In this document: piece by piece, positions 16,579 through 57,266 of the stretch
How positions within the stretch are numbered: position 1 is the first letter of the stretch
Layout of the letters: each line of letters starts with the position of its first letter
NCBI GenBank assembly: GCA_963804165.1
Contig: CAWDPO010000015.1
Span: forward strand, 136,377 to 200,376
Length of the DNA: 64,000 nt
DNA from: an uncultured delta proteobacterium
GTDB taxonomy: Bacteria; Desulfobacterota; Binatia; UBA9968
Direction of reading: 5' to 3'
Program-made: the position numbers and the translations under genes
Notes under the pieces: model-generated
Seen by the model: only the letters and a program-made list of their open reading frames with translations
Database searches by the model: none
What the model was told of the DNA's origin: nothing

Positions 16579-18771
16579 TCATCCGACCAAGCCCAACTGC
16601 AATGTCATTCCCCAGCGGTGCCGAAGGATTTGCTTCATGCCTGCCGAAGCTTTGCTTTTCAGCTCTGGGTCCTTGTCCAGCCAGGCAAGAGCCTCCTTGC
16701 GCGCCTCGGCGAGCAAGCGCGTATCGCGCGCCAAATTGGCGAAGCGAAAGTCAACGAGCCCGGATTGCCGCGCGCCAAGCATTTCCCCAGGACCGCGCAG
16801 GCGCAGATCGGCTTCAGCGATCTTAAAGCCGTCGCGCTCATTTTCCATTACGCGAAGACGTTCGGCAGCCAGGGCGCTGCCTGTGCCGCGATTGACCAAT
16901 AGGCAGTGACCCGACGCGGAACCCCGTCCGACGCGGCCGCGCAGCTGGTGCAATTGCGCCAGTCCGAAGCGCTCGGCGTGCTCGACCACCATGACCGTGG
17001 CGTTGGGAATATCGATGCCGACTTCGATCACGGTCGTCGCGACCAGAAGTCCGAGCTTGCCGTCGCGAAACGAGCGCATGATTTGCTCGCGCTCTTCGGT
17101 CTTTAAGCGGCCGTGGACCAGGCCGATGCCGTAGTCTTTGAACAGCGTCTGGCGCATTTTCTCCGCCATCTGAGTGGCGTCGCGCACTTGTTGAAGCTGT
17201 TCCGAGGCCTCTACCAGAGGCAATACGACAAATGCCTGATGGCCGCGTTTTAATTCGTCAAGCACGGTGGCGTAGACTTGCCGGCGCTCGCGCTCGGTGA
17301 AAACTTTGGTTTGCACCGGCGTTCGTCCCGGCGGCATTTCGTCGACGAACGAAACTTCCATATCGCCGTAAAGCACCATCGCCAAGCTGCGCGGGATCGG
17401 CGTCGCGCTCATCATCAGCATATGCGGTTGACGGCTCGACGGCGACGCGGTTTCCGAGCCGTCGATCAGGCGCTGGAGCGAGAGGCGCTGCATGACGCCG
17501 AAGCGATGTTGTTCGTCGATCACACCCAAGCCCATGCGCGGCGCGCGCACTTCTTCTTGGATCAAGGCGTGGGTGCCGACAACGAAAGAAATCTCGCCGC
17601 GCGAGATCCGTCCAAGCAGCAATCGTTTCTCTTTTACCGGCGTCGCCGCGGTCAGCAGCGCTGCCGAGACGCCCAGAGTATCGGCAAACTTTTTCAAGTT
17701 GCGGAAATGCTGCTCGGCCAAGATTTCCGTGGGCGCCATCCAGAGCGCTTGATAGCCGTTGTCGATCGCCTGCAGTGACGCCAACCAAGCGACCATGGTT
17801 TTTCCCGAACCCACGTCGCCTTGGACGAGGCGCTGCATCGGTTGATCGCCGCTCATGTCTTCGCTTATTTCCTTTAGAACGCGTTGCTGTGCGGCGGTGA
17901 GTTTGAACGGCAAGCGCTCGCGCATGCGAGCGCCGAGCGGCGCGCTTGGAGCCATAAAGCGAATCCCCGCGCTCTTGGCGCGGGATCGCTTACGCAGACC
18001 CAGTCCGAGTTGAAGATAGAATAGCTCGTCAAAGATGACCGTTCGGTGTGCCGGTGAAGCAAATTCGTTGAACGCGCGGATATCGATTTCAAGCGGCGTC
18101 TCGTGCAATTGCGCGAGCGCATCAGCGACCGTCATCAAACGGTGACGTTGAACGATTTCCTCGGGCAGACGGTATGAAAAATAGCGGCCGTATTCGCACA
18201 ACGCCTGGGCCATCCACCGACGCATCAGAGACAACGGCAGGCCCGTTGGTCGAACGTACATCGGCAGGATGCGTTGCAGCTGTTGCTCTTCTATTGTTTC
18301 GATGACTTCGAAATCCGGATGAACAATGCGCAGCCGCCCCGGCATTCCTGGTTCGACTTTGCCGTGGACTAAAAGCGTCTGGCCGTTGGTGAGGCCATTG
18401 GCCAGGTATCCCGGCGCGCGATACCAGATCAAATCGACGCTGCCGGTGTCATCCTGCAGCGCCCCGAGAAGCAGTTGACTACGGCGGCGCGGGTTATATT
18501 TCTTTTGCAAAGCGAGCAAACGGCCGACAAAGCTCGACTCCTCGCCCGGCGTCGCGCTGGCGATTTTCCTAATCTGGCGCCGATCTTCATAGCGAAACGG
18601 CAAGTGATAGAGCAGATCTTCGATGGTCGTCAGTCCGAAGGATTCGAGCTGGCTCGCGCGCTTCGGACCGACGCCTTTGAGACTTTGAATCGGCGTGCCG
18701 AAGGCGCGCAGGCAAGCTCGAACGCCAATGGGCGACGGATGAGTGGCGGAATCTGCGCCGGACGGCTTCAT
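16579..18771 (-). CDS. recG: ATP-dependent DNA helicase RecG
   Basis: PFRYEDR, QGDVGSGKT, DEQHRFG, SATPIPR, QLHQLRGRVGRG; start placed at ATG 18771 to avoid overlap with carB. Confidence 0.97.
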   Translation of the reverse strand: MKPSGADSATHPSPIGVRACLRAFGTPIQSLKGVGPKRASQLESFGLTTIEDLLYHLPFRYEDRRQIRKIASATPGEESSFVGRLLALQKKYNPRRRSQLLLGALQDDTGSVDLIWYRAPGYLANGLTNGQTLLVHGKVEPGMPGRLRIVHPDFEVIETIEEQQLQRILPMYVRPTGLPLSLMRRWMAQALCEYGRYFSYRLPEEIVQRHRLMTVADALAQLHETPLEIDIRAFNEFASPAHRTVIFDELFYLQLGLGLRKRSRAKSAGIRFMAPSAPLGARMRERLPFKLTAAQQRVLKEISEDMSGDQPMQRLVQGDVGSGKTMVAWLASLQAIDNGYQALWMAPTEILAEQHFRNLKKFADTLGVSAALLTAATPVKEKRLLLGRISRGEISFVVGTHALIQEEVRAPRMGLGVIDEQHRFGVMQRLSLQRLIDGSETASPSSRQPHMLMMSATPIPRSLAMVLYGDMEVSFVDEMPPGRTPVQTKVFTERERRQVYATVLDELKRGHQAFVVLPLVEASEQLQQVRDATQMAEKMRQTLFKDYGIGLVHGRLKTEEREQIMRSFRDGKLGLLVATTVIEVGIDIPNATVMVVEHAERFGLAQLHQLRGRVGRGSASGHCLLVNRGTGSALAAERLRVMENERDGFKIAEADLRLRGPGEMLGARQSGLVDFRFANLARDTRLLAEARKEALAWLDKDPELKSKASAGMKQILRHRWGMTLQLGLVG

Positions 18772-18779
18772 GACGCCCG

Positions 18780-21700
18780 CTACGGCAAGACCGGCGCCTC
18801 GTAGTCTTGTAAGGCTTTGACTTCGAAGTCGCACTGCAACAAGAATTCGATTCCATCGGCGGCGGCATCGGCTCCCGCCATCGTCGTAAAGTACGGCACC
18901 TGGTAATCTAAAGCGCAGCGCCGGATCGCGTAGGAATCCGCCTGGGAGCGGCTATCCTCGGGAGTGTTGATCACTATTGCGATCTCGCCGCTTTTGATCT
19001 GGTCGCCGATATGCGGGCTGCCGTCCTGTATCTTGTTGACGACCTCAGTGGGAATTTGCCGCTCTTCGAAACAGAGCGCCGTGCCACGTGTTGCAACGAT
19101 TTGAAAACCGATGCGGTACAGTTTCCGCGCGACAAAAGTCGCCATCACCTTGTCGTCGTCGCGTACGCTGATAAACACTTTCCCGCTCCGCGGCAAGCGC
19201 ATGCCGCTGCCGAGTTGCGCTTTGGCGAATGCGATGCCGAAATAATCGTCGATCCCCATGACCTCGCCGGTGGATTTCATTTCCGGACCCAGCAGTGTAT
19301 CGACGCCGGGGAATTTATTGAAAGGAAACACCGCCTCTTTGACAGACACATGCTTCGGCACAATCTCTTTGGTTAAACCCAGATCCTTAAGTTTCTTTCC
19401 GACCATGATGCGCGCGGCGATTTTCGCGAGAGGTACCCCGATGGCTTTGCTGACGAACGGCACCGTGCGCGACGCCCGCGGATTCACTTCCAGCACGAAA
19501 ACATTATCTCCCTGGACCGCAAACTGAGCGTTCATCAAACCCCGAACATTGAGCGCGATGGCGATCGCGACAGTGTGCCGGCGAATTTCATCTTGAATAT
19601 CCGGGTGGATCGACTTCGGCGGCAGACTGCAGGCGCTATCTCCCGAGTGAACCCCAGCCCGCTCGATATGTTCCATGATCCCGCCGATGATCACCTGCTC
19701 GCCGTCGCCCAGCGCGTCGACATCGACTTCGATCGCGTCGTCGAGGAATTTGTCGATCAGCACCGGGTGCTCCGGCGACGCTGACACGGCGCGCGTCATA
19801 TATTCTCTTAGCGCGTCGCCGTCGTAGACGATTTGCATCGCACGCCCGCCGAGCACGTAGGAGGGCCGCACTAAAACCGGGTAACCCAACCCCTCGGCGA
19901 TCTTGAACGCTTCGGCGTAGGAACGCGCGATACCGTTTTCTGGCTGTTTGATATCCAGTTTTTTAATTAATTGGGAAAAACGCTCACGGTCCTCCGCAAG
20001 ATCGATACTGTCCGGCGACGTGCCGATGATCGGCACGCCGGCGCGTTCCAAGGGCAGCGCCAGCTTGAGCGGGGTCTGGCCGCCGAATTGGACGATGACT
20101 CCGTCCGGCTTTTCGCGGTCGACGATATTCATCACCTCTTCCATGGTCAGGGGCTCAAAATAGAGTTTATCCGAGGTATCGTAATCGGTGCTCACGGTTT
20201 CAGGATTACAATTCACCATGATGGTCTCGTAACCCTCTTCCCTGAGCGCAAAGGCGGCATGCACGCAGCAGTAGTCGAATTCGATGCCTTGGCCGATGCG
20301 ATTCGGGCCGCCGCCCAAGATCATGATCTTCTTGCGTGACGTCGGGTTCGATTCATCCTCGCCTTCATAGGTTGAATAGAGATAGGGAGTAAAAGCCTGA
20401 AATTCCGCGCCGCAGGTATCGACGGAATTGAACACCGCCTCAACGCCCTTGGCTTTCCTGGTGTTTCGAACTTCAGCTTCGCTCGCACCGATGAGAGTGG
20501 CGATACGCGCGTCGGCAAATCCCCATTGCTTCCACTGCCGCAATAATCTCGCATCTAATTGAGTCAGCGACCCTGTGGCGCGAGCGATGTCATTTTCGGT
20601 CGCGATGATCTCGCAAATCTTTTCGAGAAACCAGGGATCGATGGCGGAGAGCTGAAAAATCTCGTCCGTGGTCATACCGACCCGGTAAGCGTCACCCAAG
20701 TACCAAAGACGCTGCGCGTTGGGCTGCTTTAGTTTTTCACGCACGATCGCGAGCGACTCCGATCGGGCCGCTTCGGCCAAGTCGACTTTTGGTTCGAAGC
20801 CAAAGGAGCCGGTTTCCAACGAGCGCATCGCCTTTTGCAGCGATTCTTTGAACGTTCGTCCGATGGCCATCGCTTCGCCCACGGACTTCATTTGCGGCGT
20901 CAACAGGTCTCTGGCTTGAGGAAATTTCTCGAAGGTAAAGCGCGGAACCTTGACGACGACGTAATCGATGGTCGGCTCGAAACAAGCGGGTGTTTCGCGC
21001 GTAATGTCGTTGCGAATCTCGTCGAGGGTGTAACCGACCGCGAGCTTCGCCGCGATCTTGGCGATGGGAAAGCCCGTCGCTTTGCTCGCCAGCGCGGAGC
21101 TGCGCGAGACACGCGGATTCATTTCGATGACCACCATGCGACCGTTTTCGGGGTTCACGGCAAATTGAATGTTCGAACCGCCGGTGTCGACGCCGATCTC
21201 ACGAATCACCCTTAGCGCGGCGTCGCGCATGATTTGATACTCTTTATCGGTCAGGGTTTGCGCCGGCGCGACGGTGATCGAGTCGCCGGTATGGATGCCC
21301 ATGGGATCGAAGTTTTCGATCGAGCAGATGATCACCACGTTGTCTTTATGGTCGCGCATCACTTCGAGCTCGAACTCTTTCCAGCCGAGCACCGACTCTT
21401 CGATCAACACTTCGTGCACCGGCGAAATACTTAAACCCGCCTGAACGACTTCTTTAAAATCGTCTGCTCCATAGGCAAAGTTCCCACCGCTGCCGCCGAG
21501 CGTGCGCGACGCGCGGATGATTACCGGAAAGTTCAAGCGCTTTTGAATGCGCATGGCGTCGCGCATGCTGCGCGCGTAGCCGCTGCGCGGCAGATCGAGG
21601 CCGATGCGTCGCATGGCTTCTTTGAACAGATCGCGGTCTTCGGCTTTTTTGATCGAATCGATCTTGGCGCCGATCATCTCGACGCCGTAGCGCTCGAGAA

Positions 21701-22019
21701 TTCCTTTCTCGGCGAGATCGATGGCGAGATTGAGCGCCGTTTGACCGCCCAGGGTCGGGAGAATCGCGTCGGGCTTTTCCTTGGCGATGATCTTTTCGAC
21801 GATGTCGGTTGTAATTGGCTCGATGTACGTGCGCGCGGCAAATCCAGGATCGGTCATGATTGTCGCTGGATTAGAGTTGACGAGAATGACCCTGTAGCCT
21901 TCTTCTTTGAGAGCTTTCAAGGCTTGCGTGCCGGAATAGTCGAACTCGCAGGCTTGGCCGATAATGATCGGTCCAGCACCGATCAGCAGAATCGATTCGA
22001 TATCCGTTCGTTTCGGCAT
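18780..22019 (-). CDS. carB: Carbamoyl-phosphate synthase large subunit
   Basis: MPKRTDI...[10 protein letters not shown], duplicated ATP-grasp domains, MGS domain. Confidence 0.99.
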
Positions 22020-22024
22020 GGGTG

Positions 22025-23191
22025 TTACTTGCCTCGATGCTTTGCCATCATGTCGGTAAATCGCTTGAACAAATAATTAGCGTCATGCGGCCCAGGCGAA
22101 GACTCGGGATGATATTGCACGGAAAAGATCGGCAACTCGCGATGCACCAGGCCTTCGACGGTGTTGTCGTTCAAGTTCAGGTGCGTTACCTCCGCCGCCC
22201 CTTTGAGTGAATCCGCGTCGACGGCAAAACCGTGGTTTTGCGCAGTGATCTCGACTTTGCGCGTGGTCAGATCCATCACCGGCTGGTTGCCGCCGTGATG
22301 CCCGAACTTGAGCTTGTAAGTTGTGCCGCCGAGGGCGAGTCCCATGATCTGATGGCCGAGGCAAATGCCGAATACCGGCTTCTTGCCGATCAACTTCTGC
22401 ACGTTTTCCTTGGCATAAGGCACGGCGTCGGGATCACCCGGGCCATTGGAAAGAAAAATGCCGTCCGGATTCAGCGCCAACACATCTTCAGCCGGAGCCG
22501 CCGCAGGCACGACTCTGACCCGACAGCCGGCCTCGGTGAGATTGCGCAGAATGTTGTATTTGATGCCGTAGTCGTAGGCGACTACGAAATACGCCGGCGA
22601 GTCAAACGTTCCTTTCCGTCTGCGCGTCGAAGCAGTACTCGAAACGTCGCGCTGCTTATAGCCATCGTCAAGTCGCCACATCCCCTGATCCCAGTCATAC
22701 GCTTCGTCGCAGGTCACCTCGCGGACAAGATCGACGCCGACCAAACCCGGCGCAGCTTTGGCTTTTGCGGCGAGGTCATCGGCGTTGCCGGTCAATGTCG
22801 AAATAATACCTTCTTGGGAACCATGATCGCGCAGGTGGCGCACCAGCGAGCGGGTGTCGATGCCGTGGATGCCGACGATACCATGCGCTTTCATGTACTC
22901 ATGCAGCGGCTGGGCCGCGCGCCAATTACTCGGCTGCGGCGTATAATCTTTGACGATAAAACCGTTCATAAAAGGGCGGCGCGACTCGACATCCTCGGAA
23001 TTGACCCCGACGTTGCCGATCTCCGGGTAGGTCATGGCGACAAGTTGACCTTGGTAGGAGGGGTCGGTGAGGATTTCCTGATAGCCGGTCATGCTGGTGT
23101 TAAAAACCACTTCGCCGGACGCCTCGCCTTCGGCGCCAAATGCAACCCCTTCGAAGAATCGTCCATCCGCCAGAGCTAAAAACGCCTTCAT
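22025..23191 (-). CDS. carA: Carbamoyl-phosphate synthase small subunit
   Basis: [26 protein letters not shown]. Confidence 0.99.
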
Positions 23192-23195
23192 AAAA

Positions 23196-25145
23196 CTACT
23201 TCGTAGCAGTCATCACCGCGTCACCCGATGGCTGGAATCCTTCTTCGCTCGGATTGATAATCGAATACATCACGACCTGATCGCGTTCCTCCTGGTCAAG
23301 CTCGCGCAGTTTGACGCGCACCCGATCTTTTTCCGAGCTGGGTATATTTTTGCCGACGTAATTGGGGCGCACCGGCACCTCGCGATGGCCGCGGTCAATC
23401 AAGACGGCCAAGCGCACCGACTGCGGCCTGCCGGAGCGAAAAATAATGCTCAGCGCGCTCTTGACGGTTCTACCGGTGAAGATGACGTCATCGACGAGAA
23501 TGACTTCGCGGTCTTTTAAATTCAGCGGTCCAGCGTCGGGATCGCCCGGCGGGATCCGTCGCAGTTCTTCGCCGCCGCTATAAATCTCAATCTCGCCGAC
23601 CTCCGGCTTGCGCCCGCGTTGCTTCTCGATCTCCGTTGTCAGGCGTTGCGCCAAGTATGAACCGACGCTGCGCACGCCCAATATCAGCAAGCGATCCGGA
23701 TTGCGGCAGTCGCGCAAAATTTGCCCGCTCATTTCCACAATGGCATTTTTGATCTCCGGTTCGGCCATCAAGACGCGCTGGGGGCCGCTCTTGAAGGGCT
23801 CGTAGCCCAACTCTTCCGCTTCTTTGATCGAGTCGAAGATGGCGAGCTCGCCATTATTCAACCATTGGTTGAGGTTCGCCGCGATTGCGTTCTCGTAGGA
23901 ACAGTACCGTTTGGATTTTGTGTTACCGACGAATTGCACCTTGGAACGGTGATCGCAATACGCGCAACCGAGAATCAGCGTGCCGGATTCGCCGGCTGTG
24001 AAAAGTTCGAAGCGCTTGCCGGTGGACAGCGGTTCCTTCAATGTGACGCAATTTGGATTGTGACAGTGTGGGCCGATCGCTTCGCGGCTTTTGTAGGGGA
24101 TCGCGTTGCTTTTCGAGGCAGGCCGCTTTTCTTCTCTGTGGTCGAATAGAAACTTGAGCAGCGCCATGCGCACCGGTACGCCGTAAGCGGCTTGCTTGAA
24201 ATAAATACCGCGACGGTCTTGATCGACTTCGGGCGACAGCTCGTCAACCCGCGGCAGCGGATGCATCACCACAGTGTCCTGAAACCGCTGCTCGCGGAGA
24301 AAATCCGCGCCGATCATCGGATAATTGCTGTCGTTGGCGCCTTCCTTCATGCGCTCTTTTTGTTTTCGGGTCATATAAAAGGCATCATAGCGCAATCCGG
24401 TAGCCATCGTGTTCAGGCGCGCTTGAATGATTTGGTCGACCTGCGTAAAAAGCGCCAATTGATGCGGCTGTTTGGGCGTCAGATAAAGCGCATCAGTTTC
24501 GGTCACTACCGCGCTAAGATCATCGGCGGCGACCGGCGCAAGACCGTAGCCGTATTCCTGTTCTAAACGTTCGATCACATACTGCGGCAACTCCATCCCG
24601 TTCGCCGCCAGGGTCACCACATTGGCGCCGAATCGCGCGAGCGCGAACACCAGCGAATGGATCGTGCGGCCATTTTTCAAATCACCGCACACGACCACGG
24701 TAAGTCCCTTGAGCGCGCCTTTTTCTTGGCGCAGCGTGTACAGATCGCACAAGGTCTGGGTCGGATGCTCGTGGCCGCCGTCGCCGGCGTTGACCACCGG
24801 TACGTCGGCATGCTCCGCCATCGCCTGCACCGCGCCATCCCAATTGTGGCGCACGACCAATACGTCGGCGTAGCTCGAAACGACCTTGGCGGTATCTGCA
24901 ACCGTTTCGCCTTTCGCGGTTGATGATGCTTTCATATCAGAACAGCTGATCACCGAACCGCCCAACCTTTGCATAGCCGACTCGAACGATAACCGAGTTC
25001 GCGTGCTCGGCTCATAGAAAAGCGTAGCCATGATCTGCCCGCTCGCAGCCTTGGTGGCACGCAGTTGATCCGCGCCATCCGCCAACGAAAAGATCTCTTC
25101 GATCTCTTCATTGGTCAGGTCCGCTATCGAAATCAAGTTACGCAT
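23196..25145 (-). CDS. pyrB: Fusion protein: aspartate carbamoyltransferase catalytic chain + PyrI-type Zn domain + Ada-like module + PyrR/PRTase domain
   Basis: ATCase motifs [39 protein letters not shown]; then CHNPNC...CAYC; then [23 protein letters not shown]. One uninterrupted frame; likely ATG at 25145. Confidence 0.92.
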
Positions 25146-25162
25146 CACTTCAGATGCCCAGC

Positions 25163-25720
25163 TTAGAGAGCACTTTTTCCTTGCCAATTGGCGAGAGTTA
25201 CCTGATCGATTCCATCCGACTCCTCAAGCAATACATTAACCCTTTGGCCGTCACCGGCGCCGACGTTCTTGCCGACGATGTCGGCACGGATCGGCAGCTC
25301 GCGGGAACCGCGATCGATCAAGACGGCAACGAGAATCCGTTTGGGCTGGCCGAGCCGCTCCACAGCCTCCATGGCCGCCCGAATCGTGCGCCCGCGGAAA
25401 ATCACGTCATCGACCAGGACGACGGTTTTGTCGTCTACAGCTGCTTGAATTTCGAAAGCGCCGACGGGCGGCAACCCTTGCCCTTGAGCTCGATCATCCC
25501 GGTATGGCGTCACGTCGATGACAGCGACCGGCGGGGAAAAATTGCTGATCTCGTCGATCCTTCGCGCTAGGCGCCGTGCCAAATGCACGCCCCGTGAGCG
25601 AATGCCGATCAGGACCAATTCTCCGGGCTTCGCGCTTTTCTCGATAATCTCGTGCGCCATCCGGCCGACGGTCCTGCCGAGATCGGCCTGTTCCAGGAGT
25701 ATTTGTGTTGCGTCGGCCAT
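25163..25720 (-). CDS. pyrR: PyrR attenuation regulator / uracil PRTase-fold protein
   Basis: RMAHEIIE, GIRSRG, PYRDD, VDDVIFRGRT, DRGSRELP, GKN. Confidence 0.93.
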   Translation of the reverse strand: MADATQILLEQADLGRTVGRMAHEIIEKSAKPGELVLIGIRSRGVHLARRLARRIDEISNFSPPVAVIDVTPYRDDRAQGQGLPPVGAFEIQAAVDDKTVVLVDDVIFRGRTIRAAMEAVERLGQPKRILVAVLIDRGSRELPIRADIVGKNVGAGDGQRVNVLLEESDGIDQVTLANWQGKSAL

Positions 25721-25753
25721 AAAAAAACCCTCCCGGGTTACCGAGAGGGTTTT
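25721..25753 (-). terminator. Attenuator terminator hairpin abutting the pyrR start and sequestering its RBS
   Basis: Minus strand AAAACCCTCTCGGTAACCCGGGAGGGTTTTTTT immediately followed by ATG. Confidence 0.85.
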
Positions 25754-25792
25754 GGAGCAAGCGTAAATTGCTGGATTAATTCTGTCATGGCG

Positions 25793-25825
25793 CCTTTTCC
25801 GACCTCGCAGGATCGAATTAAAAGG
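25793..25825 (-). promoter_or_regulatory. PyrR-binding RNA element
   Basis: Minus strand CCUUUUAA-UUC-GAUCCUGCGAGGUC-GGAAAAGG fits the PyrR-loop consensus (UUUAA plus ARUCCnGnGAGGYU in a CCUUUU/AAAAGG stem). Confidence 0.88.
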
Positions 25826-25836
25826 TTGCTATGCAA

Positions 25837-25865
25837 TTAGTAGCGCGCACGTATGTTAAAGTCAA
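25837..25865 (-). promoter_or_regulatory. Sigma70-type promoter of the pyr operon
   Basis: TTGACT-17 nt-TACTAA just upstream of the PyrR element. Confidence 0.6.
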
Positions 25866-25876
25866 TAAAGTTGATG

Positions 25877-26350
25877 TCAAATCTTCAGCTCGATAATTTT
25901 TACCCGCACCTTTTGTCCGTGTATGGTCAGCTGGCTCACCGCCACCGGCAACTTGAAGCGGCGCGGTCCCGCGCTCCCTGGATTAACAAAAATAATACCA
26001 TCGCGAGAAGCCACGCCGGGCTTGTGCGAGTGACCGCTGATCACGGTGTGAAAGCCTTTCGCCCCAGGATCAATATCCAGATCGTTGACGTTGTGGATGA
26101 TGTATAAGCGAGCGCCGTTTATTCGCAGATTTAAAATGTCCGGTATTTTTTTTGCCCACGCCTCCCGGTCATTGTTACCTCGAATCGCGAGCACCGGCGC
26201 GATCGAGCCAAGCAAGGTAAGGACTTCGGGCTTGCCGATGTCGCCGGCGTGGATGATTAATTCCGAATCCTTCAGTGCCGCCAGCGCCTCGGGACGAAGC
26301 AAGCCGTGGGTGTCGGAAATCACGCCGATTCGACCTGATTTCAACGTCAT
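25877..26350 (-). CDS. Metallophosphoesterase (YfcE/MJ0936 family)
   Basis: ISDTHG, HAGD, RGNND, SGHSH, NPGS; likely ATG at 26350. Confidence 0.92.
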   Translation of the reverse strand: MTLKSGRIGVISDTHGLLRPEALAALKDSELIIHAGDIGKPEVLTLLGSIAPVLAIRGNNDREAWAKKIPDILNLRINGARLYIIHNVNDLDIDPGAKGFHTVISGHSHKPGVASRDGIIFVNPGSAGPRRFKLPVAVSQLTIHGQKVRVKIIELKI

Positions 26351-26441
26351 ATGCTTTTGTCGCGTGGTGAACATCGTTTTTGATTTAGCTTGATTCGCGC
26401 CGCCGCGCAATTCTATAGTGACAGTCGCGGATGGAGGTCCT

Positions 26442-26945
26442 ATGTTTCCACACTTAAAAGGGTTCAATCTCAAAAAATGGATCGATGAAAACCGCGGCGA
26501 CTGGGGCCAGCGCCGGGTCATTTGGCAGGACTCGGACTTCATCGCGTTTGTCACCCGCGGCCCCAACCGGCGCAAGGATTTTCATATTAATCCGGGCGAC
26601 GAGATCTTCTATCAGCTCGAAGGCGACCTTAATCTTCACTATATCAAAGACAACAAGCGCGAGTTGGCGACGCTCCAAGCCGGCGATATTTTTCTGCTGC
26701 CCAAGAACACGCCGCATTCGCCGCGGCGCGCCGATGGATCGTGGACTTACGTCGTGGAACGCCAGCGCGGCAAAGAGGAAATCGACAGGTTTATCTGGCC
26801 CTGCGAAAAATGCGGCAATAATCTTTATGAGACTGAAGTTCGTTTCGACGATCCTGGCGACGCAGTCAGCCGCGCCACAAACTCGCTCAAGTCAAATCCC
26901 GCGTTGGTCACATGCAAGCAGTGCGGCGAAGTCTTGGATGTTTAG
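26442..26945 (+). CDS. nbaC: 3-hydroxyanthranilate 3,4-dioxygenase-like cupin
   Basis: GGAGG RBS; GPNxRxDFH, EIFYQLEG, PHSP, two CxxC pairs (CEKC, CKQC). Confidence 0.82.
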   Translation: MFPHLKGFNLKKWIDENRGDWGQRRVIWQDSDFIAFVTRGPNRRKDFHINPGDEIFYQLEGDLNLHYIKDNKRELATLQAGDIFLLPKNTPHSPRRADGSWTYVVERQRGKEEIDRFIWPCEKCGNNLYETEVRFDDPGDAVSRATNSLKSNPALVTCKQCGEVLDV

Positions 26946-27020: not shown

Positions 27021-29315
27021 CTAGGATTTGGCCTGCATGGCTCGCCAGACCTTCGGCGGCGTGAGGGGCAGCTCTTGAATGCGCACGCCAACGGCGCGCG
27101 ATACTGCGTTGGCAACCGCGGAAGCAACGGGCAGCAAACCGCCTTCGCCGATACCCTTCGAGCCGAACGGACCGGGGCCGTTGCCATTCTCAATTAAGAT
27201 TGTGTCGAGCGTGTCTGGGACATCGGTGAATCTCGGCACGCTATAGTCGACAAGATTACCGTTCAGCAGTTGGCCATCTTCGTAGATCATTTCTTCCATC
27301 AGCGTGTGGCCGATGCCGAACATCACCGCGCCCTCGTCCTGGCCGATACACTGCTCGGGATTAATCGCTTTGCCGGTATCGCAGGCGGAAACATATTTGA
27401 GCAGATGAATTACGCCCGTGTCAGGGTCGACCTCGATTTCGACGCCGCCCCAACCGACTTCCCAGAAGGTCGTGGTCGAACCTAGGACCGCCTTGGCACT
27501 ACGCTTGTCTTTATAGAGACCTTTGCCGATAATTTCTCCGGCCTTGCTGCCAAAGAAATCGACGATCACTTTACTGAATGAAATTGTCGGACGTTCACCG
27601 ACGACGACATGACCGTTATGCAATCTCATGTTGCCGACCTTCTGCTTGAGTACCGTTGCGGCGCATTGCAGCAGTTGTTTTTTGGCGTCCTGTGCCGCGC
27701 GCATAACCGCCGTACCCATCACCACCATCGAGCTGCTGGCGCTGGTGGAAATATCGTAGGGTGTCACGTCGGTGTCGAGCTGCGCCACACCGATCTGATC
27801 CATGGGCACGGAAAGTTCTTCGGACACGACTTGGCTCAGAGCAGTACGCGGCCCTTGTCCCATTTCAACCGTGCCCGTAAGTAGCATGACACTGCCGTCC
27901 GATGACATTTTCACCGTGGCGCCAGCGACTTTGTAGGTGCCGCCGGCATCTTTGATGCAGCAGCTGAGGCCTTTGGCGCGATTGGGCTTCGTGCTTTTTT
28001 CTTGCCAGTTGATCGCGTCGGCAACTTTCATCAGTCCCTCTTTGAGATCGCAATCAACAGGCGTATCGCCGACCGTGTAGACGTCGCCTTTCTTGAGCAG
28101 ATTTTTGATGCGAAATTCCAAGGGATCGAGACCGAGCCGCTCGGCGATCATATCCATCTGCGATTCATACGCCCAAGTGACTTGCAGCGCGCCGAAGCCG
28201 CGAAACGCCCCGGCGGGCACAGTGTTGGTATAAACGCCGTAGGCTTCGACGTTGGCGTACGGAATTTTATACGGACCCAAAGAACGATAGGCAGCTTTTT
28301 GAGTTACCCGAGGGCCGGCGTCCGCGTAGGCACCGGTATCCATGCAGACCTGGCAATCACGTGCGATCAGTTTGCCATCTTTGGTTACGCCGGTTTTCAC
28401 CGTGACCCGCGCCGGATGGCGCGTGACCGTCTTGAAGCTTTCATTGACCGAGAACTGAAGCTTTACCGGCCGCCGGGTCATCCAAGAGAGCGCCGCCGAT
28501 ATCGGCTCAGCCTTGACGTAGAGTTTGCCGCCGTAGCCGCCGCCGACGTACGGCACGATGACGCGAATGCGACTGAGCGGCAGCCGAAAGATCCCCGAGA
28601 GATGGTCGCGCAAGGTAAACGGATCCTGGCAAGATGCCCACACCGTCAGTTTCTCGCCGTCGTAATAGGCGACGTTATTGTGCGCTTCGAGAGAATAATG
28701 CTGCACTTTTTGAAAACGGAAAGTGTCTTCGAAAATATGCTCCGCCTTGGCAAAACCCTTCGCAACTTCTTTGCGGCCGAAAGTTAAATAATAGCAGACG
28801 TTGGTGCCGTTGAATCTTTCCGGCGCGCCGTAAACCGAGCCGCGCAACTCGGCGCGGGCAACTCCAGCTTCGTGCACCAGAGCAGCGCCCGGCGCCGTGG
28901 CGTCTTCGATATTCGTGACTTTCGAAAGTTCTTCGTACTCGACTTCGATCAGCTCCAGCGCCTGCTCCGCCGTCGCCGGATCGTCGGCCAACACCGCCGC
29001 CACGGGGTCGCCGACGTAGCGGACTTTGTCGACGGCAACGATCGATTGATCTTTGTAGGTTGCGCCGTATTTGTAATTGAATCCCTGAATATCATCGCGC
29101 GTCAGGGTCGCGATGACCCCAGGAAACTCCTTGGCCTTCGATGCGTCGACTCTGGCCAGCTTTGCATGCGCGACCGGGCTTCTGAGTATGCGCGCGTGTG
29201 CCATGCCCGGAAGTTGGATATCGCTCGTATAGATCGCTTTACCGGTGACTTTCTCAACACCATCGACTCTGTGCGCGCTCGTACCGACGACAGAATAAGC
29301 TTGTTTCGTTTTCAT
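27021..29315 (-). CDS. Xanthine dehydrogenase-family molybdopterin-binding large subunit
   Basis: DGVEKVTG, VGGGYGGK, GAFRGFG, EMGQG, KGIGEGG; likely ATG at 29315. Confidence 0.93.
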   Translation of the reverse strand: MKTKQAYSVVGTSAHRVDGVEKVTGKAIYTSDIQLPGMAHARILRSPVAHAKLARVDASKAKEFPGVIATLTRDDIQGFNYKYGATYKDQSIVAVDKVRYVGDPVAAVLADDPATAEQALELIEVEYEELSKVTNIEDATAPGAALVHEAGVARAELRGSVYGAPERFNGTNVCYYLTFGRKEVAKGFAKAEHIFEDTFRFQKVQHYSLEAHNNVAYYDGEKLTVWASCQDPFTLRDHLSGIFRLPLSRIRVIVPYVGGGYGGKLYVKAEPISAALSWMTRRPVKLQFSVNESFKTVTRHPARVTVKTGVTKDGKLIARDCQVCMDTGAYADAGPRVTQKAAYRSLGPYKIPYANVEAYGVYTNTVPAGAFRGFGALQVTWAYESQMDMIAERLGLDPLEFRIKNLLKKGDVYTVGDTPVDCDLKEGLMKVADAINWQEKSTKPNRAKGLSCCIKDAGGTYKVAGATVKMSSDGSVMLLTGTVEMGQGPRTALSQVVSEELSVPMDQIGVAQLDTDVTPYDISTSASSSMVVMGTAVMRAAQDAKKQLLQCAATVLKQKVGNMRLHNGHVVVGERPTISFSKVIVDFFGSKAGEIIGKGLYKDKRSAKAVLGSTTTFWEVGWGGVEIEVDPDTGVIHLLKYVSACDTGKAINPEQCIGQDEGAVMFGIGHTLMEEMIYEDGQLLNGNLVDYSVPRFTDVPDTLDTILIENGNGPGPFGSKGIGEGGLLPVASAVANAVSRAVGVRIQELPLTPPKVWRAMQAKS

Positions 29316-29325
29316 GATCGAACTG

Positions 29326-29365
29326 AGAAAAAGAAGAGGGCCACGGCGACCTTTCACCGTGGCCC
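29326..29365 (-). terminator. Intrinsic terminator after the UbiD and Zn-ribbon genes
   Basis: GGGCCACGGTGA-AAGG-TCGCCGTGGCCC followed by TCTTCTTTTTCT on the minus strand. Confidence 0.75.
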
Positions 29366-57108: not shown

Positions 57109-57184
57109 GAGCCGTTAGCTCAGTCGGTAGAGCATCTGCCTTTTAAGCAGAGGGTCGCCGGTTCGAATCCGGCACGGCTCACCA
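57109..57184 (+). tRNA. tRNA-Lys (TTT)
   Basis: GAGCCGT/ACGGCTC acceptor stem, anticodon loop CTTTTAA, GGTTCGAATCC T-arm, encoded CCA. Confidence 0.97.
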
Positions 57185-57188
57185 GTAC

Positions 57189-57266
57189 GTCCCCGTCGTC
57201 TAGCTCGGCCCAGGACACCGGCCTTTCACGCCGATAACACGGGTTCAAATCCCGTCGGGGACGCCA
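57189..57266 (+). tRNA. tRNA-Glu (TTC)
   Basis: GTCCCCG/CGGGGAC acceptor stem, anticodon loop CTTTCAC, GGTTCAAATCC T-arm, encoded CCA. Confidence 0.97.

Follow-up and report, generated by a model that had tools for sequence, protein, structure and literature searches.

Aspartate carbamoyltransferase (ATCase) is the textbook model of allosteric regulation. A gene in a 64,000-nucleotide stretch of contig CAWDPO010000015.1 from an uncultured soil bacterium, a delta proteobacterium (assembly GCA_963804165.1; the whole stretch is called the window below) raises the question of what a PyrR domain does at the end of such an enzyme, with a second, free-standing pyrR gene next to it. In the encoded protein, P0001, an ATCase catalytic part is followed by a four-cysteine zinc domain of the PyrI type, then by a 47-residue module that is conserved, and finally by a phosphoribosyltransferase (PRTase) domain of the PyrR type. 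The fused PyrR probably gives the textbook enzyme a different nucleotide sensor. The conserved ATCase-zinc-module-PyrR arrangement is apparently undescribed: full-text literature searches, with most subscription papers outside their coverage, found no description of it, which agrees within that coverage with the original prediction made from the window's sequence. The gene and its parts are as follows (residue numbers of P0001).

23196..25145, minus strand: fusion gene, 649 amino acids plus stop (family scans, alignment, model)
24132..25145, minus strand: ATCase catalytic part, residues 1–338 (TIGR00670, Pfam, fold match, motifs)
24387..24476, minus strand: insertion of about 30 residues in the Asp-binding domain, about residues 224–253 (alignment to P. 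abyssi)
23922..24101, minus strand: PyrI-type zinc domain, residues about 349–408, with C361, C366, C394 and C397 (PF02748, profile, fold)
23781..23921, minus strand: strand-helix-strand-helix module, residues about 409–455 (conservation, model; no family assignment)
23196..23780, minus strand: PyrR-type PRTase domain, residues 456–649, and stop (NF003549, structures, dimer prediction)

Domain organization of the fusion protein

The open reading frame (ORF) is uninterrupted over 23196..25187 on the minus strand (663 amino acids counted from a TTG). Translation from the ATG at 25145 yields the 649-residue P0001; the alternative TTG start at 25187 would add 14 amino acids. The start at 25145 was taken as correct because relatives begin at the equivalent position. 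Match positions in Pfam and NCBIfam are given in the 663-residue numbering, and residues named elsewhere are those of P0001. The Pfam matches were OTCace_N at 16–154 (E 1.8e-50, 171.3 bits against a cut-off of 29.9), OTCace in two stretches (E 4.6e-21, 75.9 bits, cut-off 29.4), PyrI_C (PF02748) at 374–414 (25.4 bits, cut-off 23.4; 29.3 bits in the genome search) and Pribosyltran at 476–613 (E 5.5e-17). In NCBIfam, the ATCase model TIGR00670 scored 294.9 bits (cut-off 236.95) and the PyrR model NF003549 scored 153.7 bits (cut-off 138, residues 470–635); P0001 was below the cut-offs of the other four PyrR models. The model for fused PyrB-PyrI proteins, NF009916, gave 87.2 bits against a cut-off of 800, and this match spans the catalytic part only (54–211). 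The AlphaFold2 model of the full-length protein had a pTM of 0.73 and a mean pLDDT of 78.7. The original prediction had placed PyrB, a zinc domain, a linker and PyrR in one open frame from 23196 to 25145. The frame, its ends, the cysteines at about 24065–23955 (C361, C366, C394 and C397 of P0001) and the limits of the PyrR domain are borne out by these data; the linker is present too, but it is a conserved module and not a spacer.

By score, the catalytic part is closest to ATCases that pair with PyrI: the PyrB comparisons gave 251.5 bits for M. jannaschii, 244.8 for P. abyssi, about 208 for E. coli and 138 for B. subtilis. We take this PyrI-associated lineage to be ATC II of the scheme that uses that name. 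Superposition on the ATCase domain of human CAD gave a Z of 32.5 (root-mean-square deviation (rmsd) of 2.3 Å over 280 residues). The carbamoyl-phosphate and aspartate binding motifs of ATCase are S-T-R-T-R, H-P-x-Q, R-x-Q-x-E-R and H-P-L-P-R; here STRTR, HPTQ, R-x-Q-x-E-R and HPLPR are invariant or at least 90% conserved among 110 aligned fusion sequences (the set used for conservation throughout), and those of P0001 align with the motifs of the M. jannaschii and P. abyssi enzymes. Sister families without the fusion (loci L113–L116 in genomes G143, G110, G038 and G076) have a plain pyrR-pyrB-pyrC-carA operon, and their PyrB is only 32–37% identical to the catalytic part of the fusion (129–140 bits), so that a PyrI-associated ATCase lineage occupies a Gram-positive-style operon slot. 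This suggests that the pyrB of that slot may have been displaced by a gene of another lineage.

In the Asp-binding domain the insertion locally duplicates the D-x-x-Y-x-T-[RP]-x-Q strand, just ahead of the motif equivalent to R229/Q231; residues 221–232 of the P. abyssi enzyme align twice, with residues 218–227 and 252–263 of the query. The inserted sequence is well conserved yet has a low pLDDT in the model. It is also present in the short form of the protein (see below), and the plain ATCases of the sister families give an uninterrupted model match. The insertion adjoins the equivalent of the 240s loop of E. coli ATCase, and from its position it is a candidate contact for the tail.

The four zinc cysteines are invariant in all 110 sequences, and the C-x-N-x-N-C motif is invariant or nearly so. 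A profile of the zinc domain and module, built from 11 diverse loci, had no PDB matches other than PyrI chains (12 distinct sequences, with E from 9.4e-5 to 0.01); in E. coli PyrI the match spans residues 108–150 and reaches the C-terminus. The best fold match of the zinc domain was Moritella PyrI (Z 5.8, rmsd 2.5 Å over 49 residues). A Foldseek search with the model of the zinc domain and module returned nothing at E ≤ 0.001, the best rows being E. coli PyrI at E ≥ 0.33. On the profile match, the zinc domain is homologous to that of PyrI. The module begins where E. coli PyrI ends. Its secondary structure is confidently predicted and W428, L434, F437, A443 and P450 are invariant; it gave no Pfam match at E ≤ 0.1 and no sequence match in the PDB. 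A weak likeness to N-Ada (1u8b_A, Z 4.9, rmsd 2.6 Å over 48 residues, 58–110 of the model; 1eyf_A, Z 4.3) lies in the noise range, and the module has no conserved cysteine ligands of the kind seen in Ada_Zn_binding.

The fused PyrR domain matched PyrR structures in sequence with E down to 7.1e-37. Residues 455–628 superimpose on M. tuberculosis PyrR with a Z of 24.1 (rmsd 2.1 Å over 164 residues, 40% identity), with other PRTases at Z ≤ 17.2. Residues were compared between the 110 fused and 83 'free' PyrRs, and then between 13 deep-lineage fused domains and five free neighbours. DDV, GRP and DRGHRE form the core of type I PRTases that binds nucleotides and phosphoribosyl pyrophosphate (PRPP). 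LVDDV, G-R-P, the V-D-D-V-x-x-T-G-R-T loop and DRGHRE are conserved in the 110 fused sequences, the D-D-V core being invariant; in the deep lineages DDV is present in 13/13 and DRGHRE in 12/13. As far as residue identities tell, the fused PyrR keeps the nucleotide/PRPP-binding core and its RNA surface is eroded. The position of the helix-1 Arg, which is R in 0.78 of the free PyrRs, holds a basic residue in two of the 13 fused lineages. The helix-1 His is found in none of the 13 and in three of the five free neighbours, the R/K that follows four residues on, equivalent to R27, is mostly D/E in fused domains, and RAD has become RPN or QPQ in 13/13. All five free neighbours have the Arg, RAD and [YR]-R-D-D. 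The flexible YRDD loop of the 83 free PyrRs (R 0.96, D 0.95, D 0.95) is intact in 2/13 fused lineages and is four residues shorter in the window's clade. R588, R/K593 and K599 are retained; we take these to be the equivalents of the RNA-binding residues R141, R146 and K152 of B. subtilis PyrR, and the changed helix-1 positions to be its T18/R19/H22/R27. Savacool and Switzer (2002) reportedly identified T18, H22, R27, R141, R146 and K152 as important for RNA binding. PMC7430163 describes RNA binding by PyrR as involving a basic concave surface, promoted by UMP/UTP and antagonised by GMP.

The paired prediction for two copies of the tail (345–649) reached a median ipSAE of 0.48 over three runs; the best of 3 controls had 0.00. 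The mark set for this score was reached by 20/30 proteins whose solved structures are pairs of one chain and by 1/23 solved as single chains, counts that apply here only roughly because the alignment used was our own. The runs agree in at least 90% of the contacts and the partner pLDDT is at least 76. The predicted dimer is two-fold symmetric, with the interface wholly in the PyrR domain (550, 561–562, 565–566, 569, 575–579 and 588–595). Of the 18 positions that differ between fused and free PyrRs, five lie among the 19 interface residues, where 1.95 would be expected (P = 0.03, post hoc). The fused PyrR is thus predicted to form a symmetric PyrR-type dimer.

The window belongs to a draft genome of 7.5 Mb in 46 contigs (81% complete, 5% contamination), to which the following negatives apply. 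OTCace_N has two matches, the fusion and a gene that we assign to ornithine carbamoyltransferase (OTCase) because it adjoins an acetylornithine-type aminotransferase gene. The fusion is the sole ATCase found in the genome, which argues that the fusion enzyme is likely to be active. The original prediction had noted that the nucleotide-binding domain of PyrI is absent, and indeed PF01948 has no match in P0001 and 0 in the genome, the same model matching 7 of 14 control genomes; there is also no second PyrI_C match. No Upp-family uracil phosphoribosyltransferase (UPRTase) scored above the cut-off. A pyrC gene above the curated cut-off lies on another contig.

Occurrence in other genomes and operon context

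A metagenomic protein search with residues 330–649 found 759 proteins at E ≤ 1e-3. Among the 120 matches listed, 105 are 635–665 amino acids long and the other 15 are 356–592; they come from several sources, on contigs of up to 1.6 Mb. In the sources these proteins carry no annotation other than 'aspartate carbamoyltransferase catalytic subunit' or 'pyrimidine operon attenuation protein'. When the tail was searched exhaustively, full-length cluster representatives were recovered at 55, 37 and 32% tail identity (P0124, P0138 and P0154, respectively). The named records with a full tail are metagenome-assembled genomes (MAGs) labelled Candidatus Binatia, 'delta proteobacterium', Syntrophobacteraceae or Deltaproteobacteria; other MAG labels among the metagenomic matches, taken over unchecked, are Methylomirabilota, Chloroflexota and Verrucomicrobiae.

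The zinc-module stretch occurs in 8/401 genomes sampled from the phylum. In the class, a PyrI_C match was found in 30 of 101 genomes sampled, 29 times in a frame of 624–827 amino acids and once in a frame that ends at a contig edge; none of these 30 genomes has a PyrI-sized frame with PyrI_C. The distribution is all-or-none by family (f1 5/5, f113 1/1, f8 1/1, f6 11/11 and f116 11/11, against 0/71 for 14 others). One f6 genome (G474) is unpublished, and without it the counts are 29/100 and 10/10. The metagenomic matches and the two samples confirm the fusion in independent genomes, a check that the original prediction had called for. Read contigs from four studies consist of short pieces, several identical to the window, in which no indel or joint was seen; no read piece spans the junction between module and PyrR and no sequencing run contained more than 0.19 of the words, so that the reads neither strengthen nor oppose the evidence from relatives. 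In one related genome (G418 of family f112, in the order of the window genome; one contig, 99% complete) there is no ATCase above the TIGR00670 cut-off and no PyrI_C; its best TIGR00670 score, 145.7 bits, probably belongs to an OTCase. The ATCase of this organism may be very divergent, or the de novo pathway may be lacking.

Free-standing chains of zinc domain and PyrR, or of zinc domain and module, were looked for and none was found. Tail-only matches of 139–327 amino acids (among them P0122, P0127, P0125, P0128, P0156 and P0168) begin at an internal Met, situated in the final ATCase helix, or else have a frameshift or are truncated; P0142 (514 amino acids) is a frameshifted fusion. A short form of the protein does occur. 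In G006, a genome from another class of the phylum, locus L099 (contig C352, 1510..2949, minus strand) encodes an ATCase with the insertion, the zinc domain and the module, followed by pyrC, and no PyrR was found in that genome (84% complete). Four such proteins are known here (P0272–P0275, 452–473 amino acids, 44–100% tail identity), each ending at most about 12 residues past the module. The short form is rare, and by comparison with it the PyrR domain would be an addition to, or a loss from, a self-sufficient zinc-module unit.

In the window the fusion is the second gene of an operon with the order pyrR–fusion–carA–carB:

25853..25880, minus strand: promoter-like site, TTGACA-16 nt-TAACAT (10/12 consensus matches; 25 nt upstream of the leader)
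25719..25828, minus strand: PyrR-binding leader RNA, RF00515 (51.0 bits; binding hairpin at about 25793–25825)
25724..25753, minus strand: terminator hairpin, 13-bp stem, then a T-run that abuts the pyrR ATG (shorter version 25739..25726)
25163..25720, minus strand: free-standing pyrR, 185 amino acids (NF003549, 197.2 bits, cut-off 138)
22025..23191, minus strand: carA, 388 amino acids (CPSase_sm_chain E 1.2e-54, GATase E 6.6e-57)
18780..22019, minus strand: carB-like ORF, 1079 amino acids, last gene of the operon (named from sequence and position after carA)

The leader RNA matches the whole RF00515 model (positions 1–115 of 115, E 8.8e-6 and 1.8e-6), its 51.0 bits comparing with a gathering score of 54. 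It is the sole match in the 7.5-Mb genome (E 1.3e-5), and of the 14 control genomes only B. subtilis and L. lactis have matches. The loop of the binding hairpin, AUCCUGCGAGGUC, is close to ARUCCAGAGAGGYU, given as the PyrR recognition consensus in PMC7430163. In relatives, RF00515 was found upstream of pyrR in L016 (67.5 bits), L013 (56.3), L014 (54.5) and L012 (53.6) and was not found in L015 at E ≤ 0.01, which makes four of the five relatives whose loci reach the region. The terminator hairpin folds with −41.2 kcal/mol (z −3.38; 0/200 shuffles equally stable), and its 3' arm holds the only Shine-Dalgarno-like GGAGG near the pyrR start codon. Promoter-like sites are rarer in 18500–26200 than expected from shuffles (2 versus 3.9), so that only the position of the site is suggestive. 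A Bacillus-type PyrR attenuator is thus found in an organism whose nearest named relatives are Binatia or 'deltaproteobacterial' MAGs.

The free PyrR of the window retains the helix-1 R..H..K and YRDD. A free pyrR (197–210 bits) lies directly upstream in 4/4 full-fusion genomes examined, from three families. Recent tandem duplication of this neighbour was considered as the source of the fused domain and is ruled out by their identity of 35%. Fused and free PyrRs group apart in both quick trees. In the cleaned tree, which retained 40 of 82 free rows and dropped two misfiled fragments, 12 of 13 fused domains group together (SH-aLRT 83) and P0154 joins weakly (62) beside the free P0260; a single origin of the fused domains is moderately supported by this topology. 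A clade of the five free neighbours, present in the first tree (95, starred), is gone in the cleaned one. P0260, a PyrR of free-standing length (175 amino acids), groups with P0154 in both trees (support 89, then an open node) and may represent a domain freed secondarily, a fragment or a product of long-branch attraction.

In the loci examined the fusion always lies beside carA or pyrC, with pyrC instead of carA as the next gene in f6 and f8. The original prediction had remarked on the lack of pyrC. The gene is indeed missing locally, but it is present elsewhere in the genome; a missing pyrC as a design element is ruled out by that copy and by the order fusion–pyrC in other families.

Upstream of the operon lie 25877..26575 (minus strand), 26418..26945 (plus strand) and 27021..29357 (minus strand), encoding a Metallophos_2 phosphoesterase, a 3-hydroxyanthranilate 3,4-dioxygenase with a C-terminal CxxC...CxxC tail, and the large subunit of a molybdopterin-binding oxidoreductase. 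The first two ORFs, taken from their most upstream start codons, overlap on opposite strands. The same three kinds of gene flank the operon in L012–L015. Elsewhere in the window there are two adjacent tRNA genes on the plus strand, 57109..57181 and 57189..57263 (Rfam, 77.7 and 56.8 bits).

Role of the fused PyrR domain

The interpretation towards which we lean is that the fused PyrR works as a regulatory domain that senses ligands, dimerises and acts via the zinc domain, with RNA control handled by the free PyrR. A regulatory role fits because the ligand core is kept, residues of the RNA surface are lost and a dimer is predicted; with the adjacent free pyrR and the attenuator RNA the picture becomes one of division of labour. 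The PyrI-derived zinc domain would dock the tail onto the catalytic trimer, as in class B ATCases, and the conserved 47-residue module would link it to the PyrR-derived domain. The latter would have given up its role as RNA-binding attenuator, would bind PRPP and/or nucleotides (UMP/UTP versus GMP/GTP/PRPP, the ligands of PyrR) and would pair with a second copy. Three PyrR-type dimers could then hold two catalytic trimers together as a hexamer of fusion chains and relay a pyrimidine/purine signal to the active sites, in the role of the dimers of PyrI allosteric domains. RNA control of the operon, in both transcription and translation, would be left to the upstream free PyrR acting on the leader attenuator.

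Three other functions can be imagined for the fused domain. It could be an active UPRTase, so that the protein is a bifunctional enzyme in which salvage and de novo synthesis are co-expressed and not allosterically coupled. The PRPP loop is kept and the genome has no Upp-family UPRTase above the cut-off, and B. subtilis PyrR is one of the two UPRTases of that organism (PMC7430163). On the other hand, the YRDD loop is shortened in the window's clade and intact in so few fused lineages, the UPRTase activity of M. tuberculosis PyrR is weak according to PMC3570474, the neighbouring free PyrR keeps YRDD and could supply the activity, and a plain co-expression fusion leaves the zinc domain and module between the parts unexplained. 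We consider this unlikely. A purely structural role, in which the PyrR dimer joins two trimers for stability or for channelling with carbamoyl phosphate synthetase or dihydroorotase and senses no ligand, is improbable as well. It would account for the symmetric dimer, for the leaning of fused-specific substitutions to the interface, for the loss of the GRT Arg in 5/13 lineages and for the constant adjacency of carA or pyrC; a mere handle, however, has no need of DDV, GRP and DRGHRE, which are conserved down to 32–37% identity.

The enzyme might also moonlight as an RNA regulator, binding pyr mRNA through its PyrR domain and coupling enzyme level or occupancy to attenuation. NF003549 is above its cut-off, R588, R/K593 and K599 (equivalents of RNA-binding residues) are retained, and a PyrR-binding RNA lies in the operon leader. 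However, the basic and His residues of helix 1 are lost in most or all fused lineages and kept by the adjacent free PyrR, the genome has a single PyrR RNA site, and all four full fusions examined have a dedicated free PyrR beside them, which makes this function quite improbable. That the fusion is an artefact (the product of wrong assembly, of a frameshift that joined two genes, or of pseudogene decay) has a negligible probability in view of the same unbroken architecture in 105 full-length metagenomic proteins among the matches listed and in 29 other genomes of the class, the invariant catalytic and zinc motifs, and contigs free of indel or joint.

Several observations weigh against a regulatory role as formulated above. 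The ligand site is not uniformly kept: the Arg of the TGRT loop is present in eight of the 13 deep fused lineages and is W or M in five (S-G-W-T, T-G-W-T or T-G-M-T, in L094–L098 and P0130 of f6 and f8 and in L093 of G291). P0138 and P0154, which are the two most divergent fusions, still have an intact YRDD loop. The set of 83 free PyrRs took in two misfiled fusion fragments, P0168 and P0196. The dimer prediction may only reflect the likeness to solved PyrR dimers. We infer the docking of the zinc domain, and any contact between PyrR and ATCase parts. The existence of the short form implies a PyrR-independent role for the zinc module, and PyrR may be dispensable; with no Upp-family UPRTase found, there is also room for a catalytic salvage role of one PyrR copy. 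Finally, the sensor sits on the C-terminal side of the zinc domain, whereas the allosteric domain of PyrI sits on the N-terminal side, so that the signal-transfer geometry of E. coli ATCase cannot be copied. The proposal that PyrR simply replaces the allosteric domain, made in the original prediction, does not survive in that form: the sensor follows the zinc domain via an extra module and PyrI's precedes it.

A bolder version of the regulatory reading, which we put forward tentatively and with slightly less than even credence, is that the fusion represents a fourth kind of bacterial ATCase. A duplicated PyrR would have been exapted as allosteric domain of the very enzyme encoded in the operon that PyrR controls, with three dimers bridging two trimers, and the balance of UMP/UTP versus GMP/GTP/PRPP (perhaps ppGpp) would determine ATCase activity via a reverse-wired PyrI zinc domain.

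Comparison with known systems

If this bolder version is correct, the pathway is under double control by a single ligand-sensing fold, at the level of RNA and of the enzyme. The docking domain of PyrI would have been kept and its sensor exchanged for an unrelated fold that senses pyrimidine/purine nucleotides elsewhere, which would provide a natural test of the modularity of allostery and a case of an RNA regulator turned enzyme domain. The family is abundant in soil metagenomes (the 759 matches) and bears no annotation beyond 'catalytic subunit'. Built-in material for comparison is offered by the short form and by the pair of free and fused PyrR.

Accepted classes of bacterial ATCase, according to PMC6022934, are A (with dihydroorotase), B (with regulatory subunits, which may be fused or separate) and C (bare trimer); the same source describes plant ATCase as a trimer sensitive to effectors. 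The fusion resembles class B (E. coli PyrB6-PyrI6) in its catalytic lineage, its homologous four-Cys zinc domain, a regulatory element predicted to dimerise and a presumed logic of balancing pyrimidines against purines. It differs in being one chain, in lacking the PyrI allosteric domain, in having a PRTase-fold PyrR as the sensor, attached after the zinc domain via the extra module, and in the roughly 30 residues inserted into the Asp-binding domain. With the fused PyrB-PyrI proteins of the Thermotoga type (NF009916), found in Thermotoga and Treponema, it shares the combination of catalytic and regulatory parts in a single polypeptide; those proteins, however, carry a whole PyrI, allosteric domain first. 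Markby, Zhou and Schachman reportedly showed in 1991 that the isolated zinc domain of PyrI binds and modifies the catalytic trimer. The short form resembles a naturally occurring version of that complex, although the domain studied there was an engineered fragment and the one found here is fused and continues into a conserved module. UMP-type feedback without PyrI is likewise seen in plant ATCase (PDB 6ypo), a class C trimer that UMP inhibits; it has no added domain, its inhibitor acting at the active site in the catalytic chain. PyrR of Bacillus and its relatives shares with the fused domain the fold, the family score, the PRPP/nucleotide loop, DRGHRE and the type of dimer (predicted here). 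In the fusion, by contrast, the domain is joined to an enzyme, the helix-1 Arg/His and RAD are altered, most lineages have lost YRDD, and attenuation is assigned to a separate, canonical PyrR with its own RNA site.

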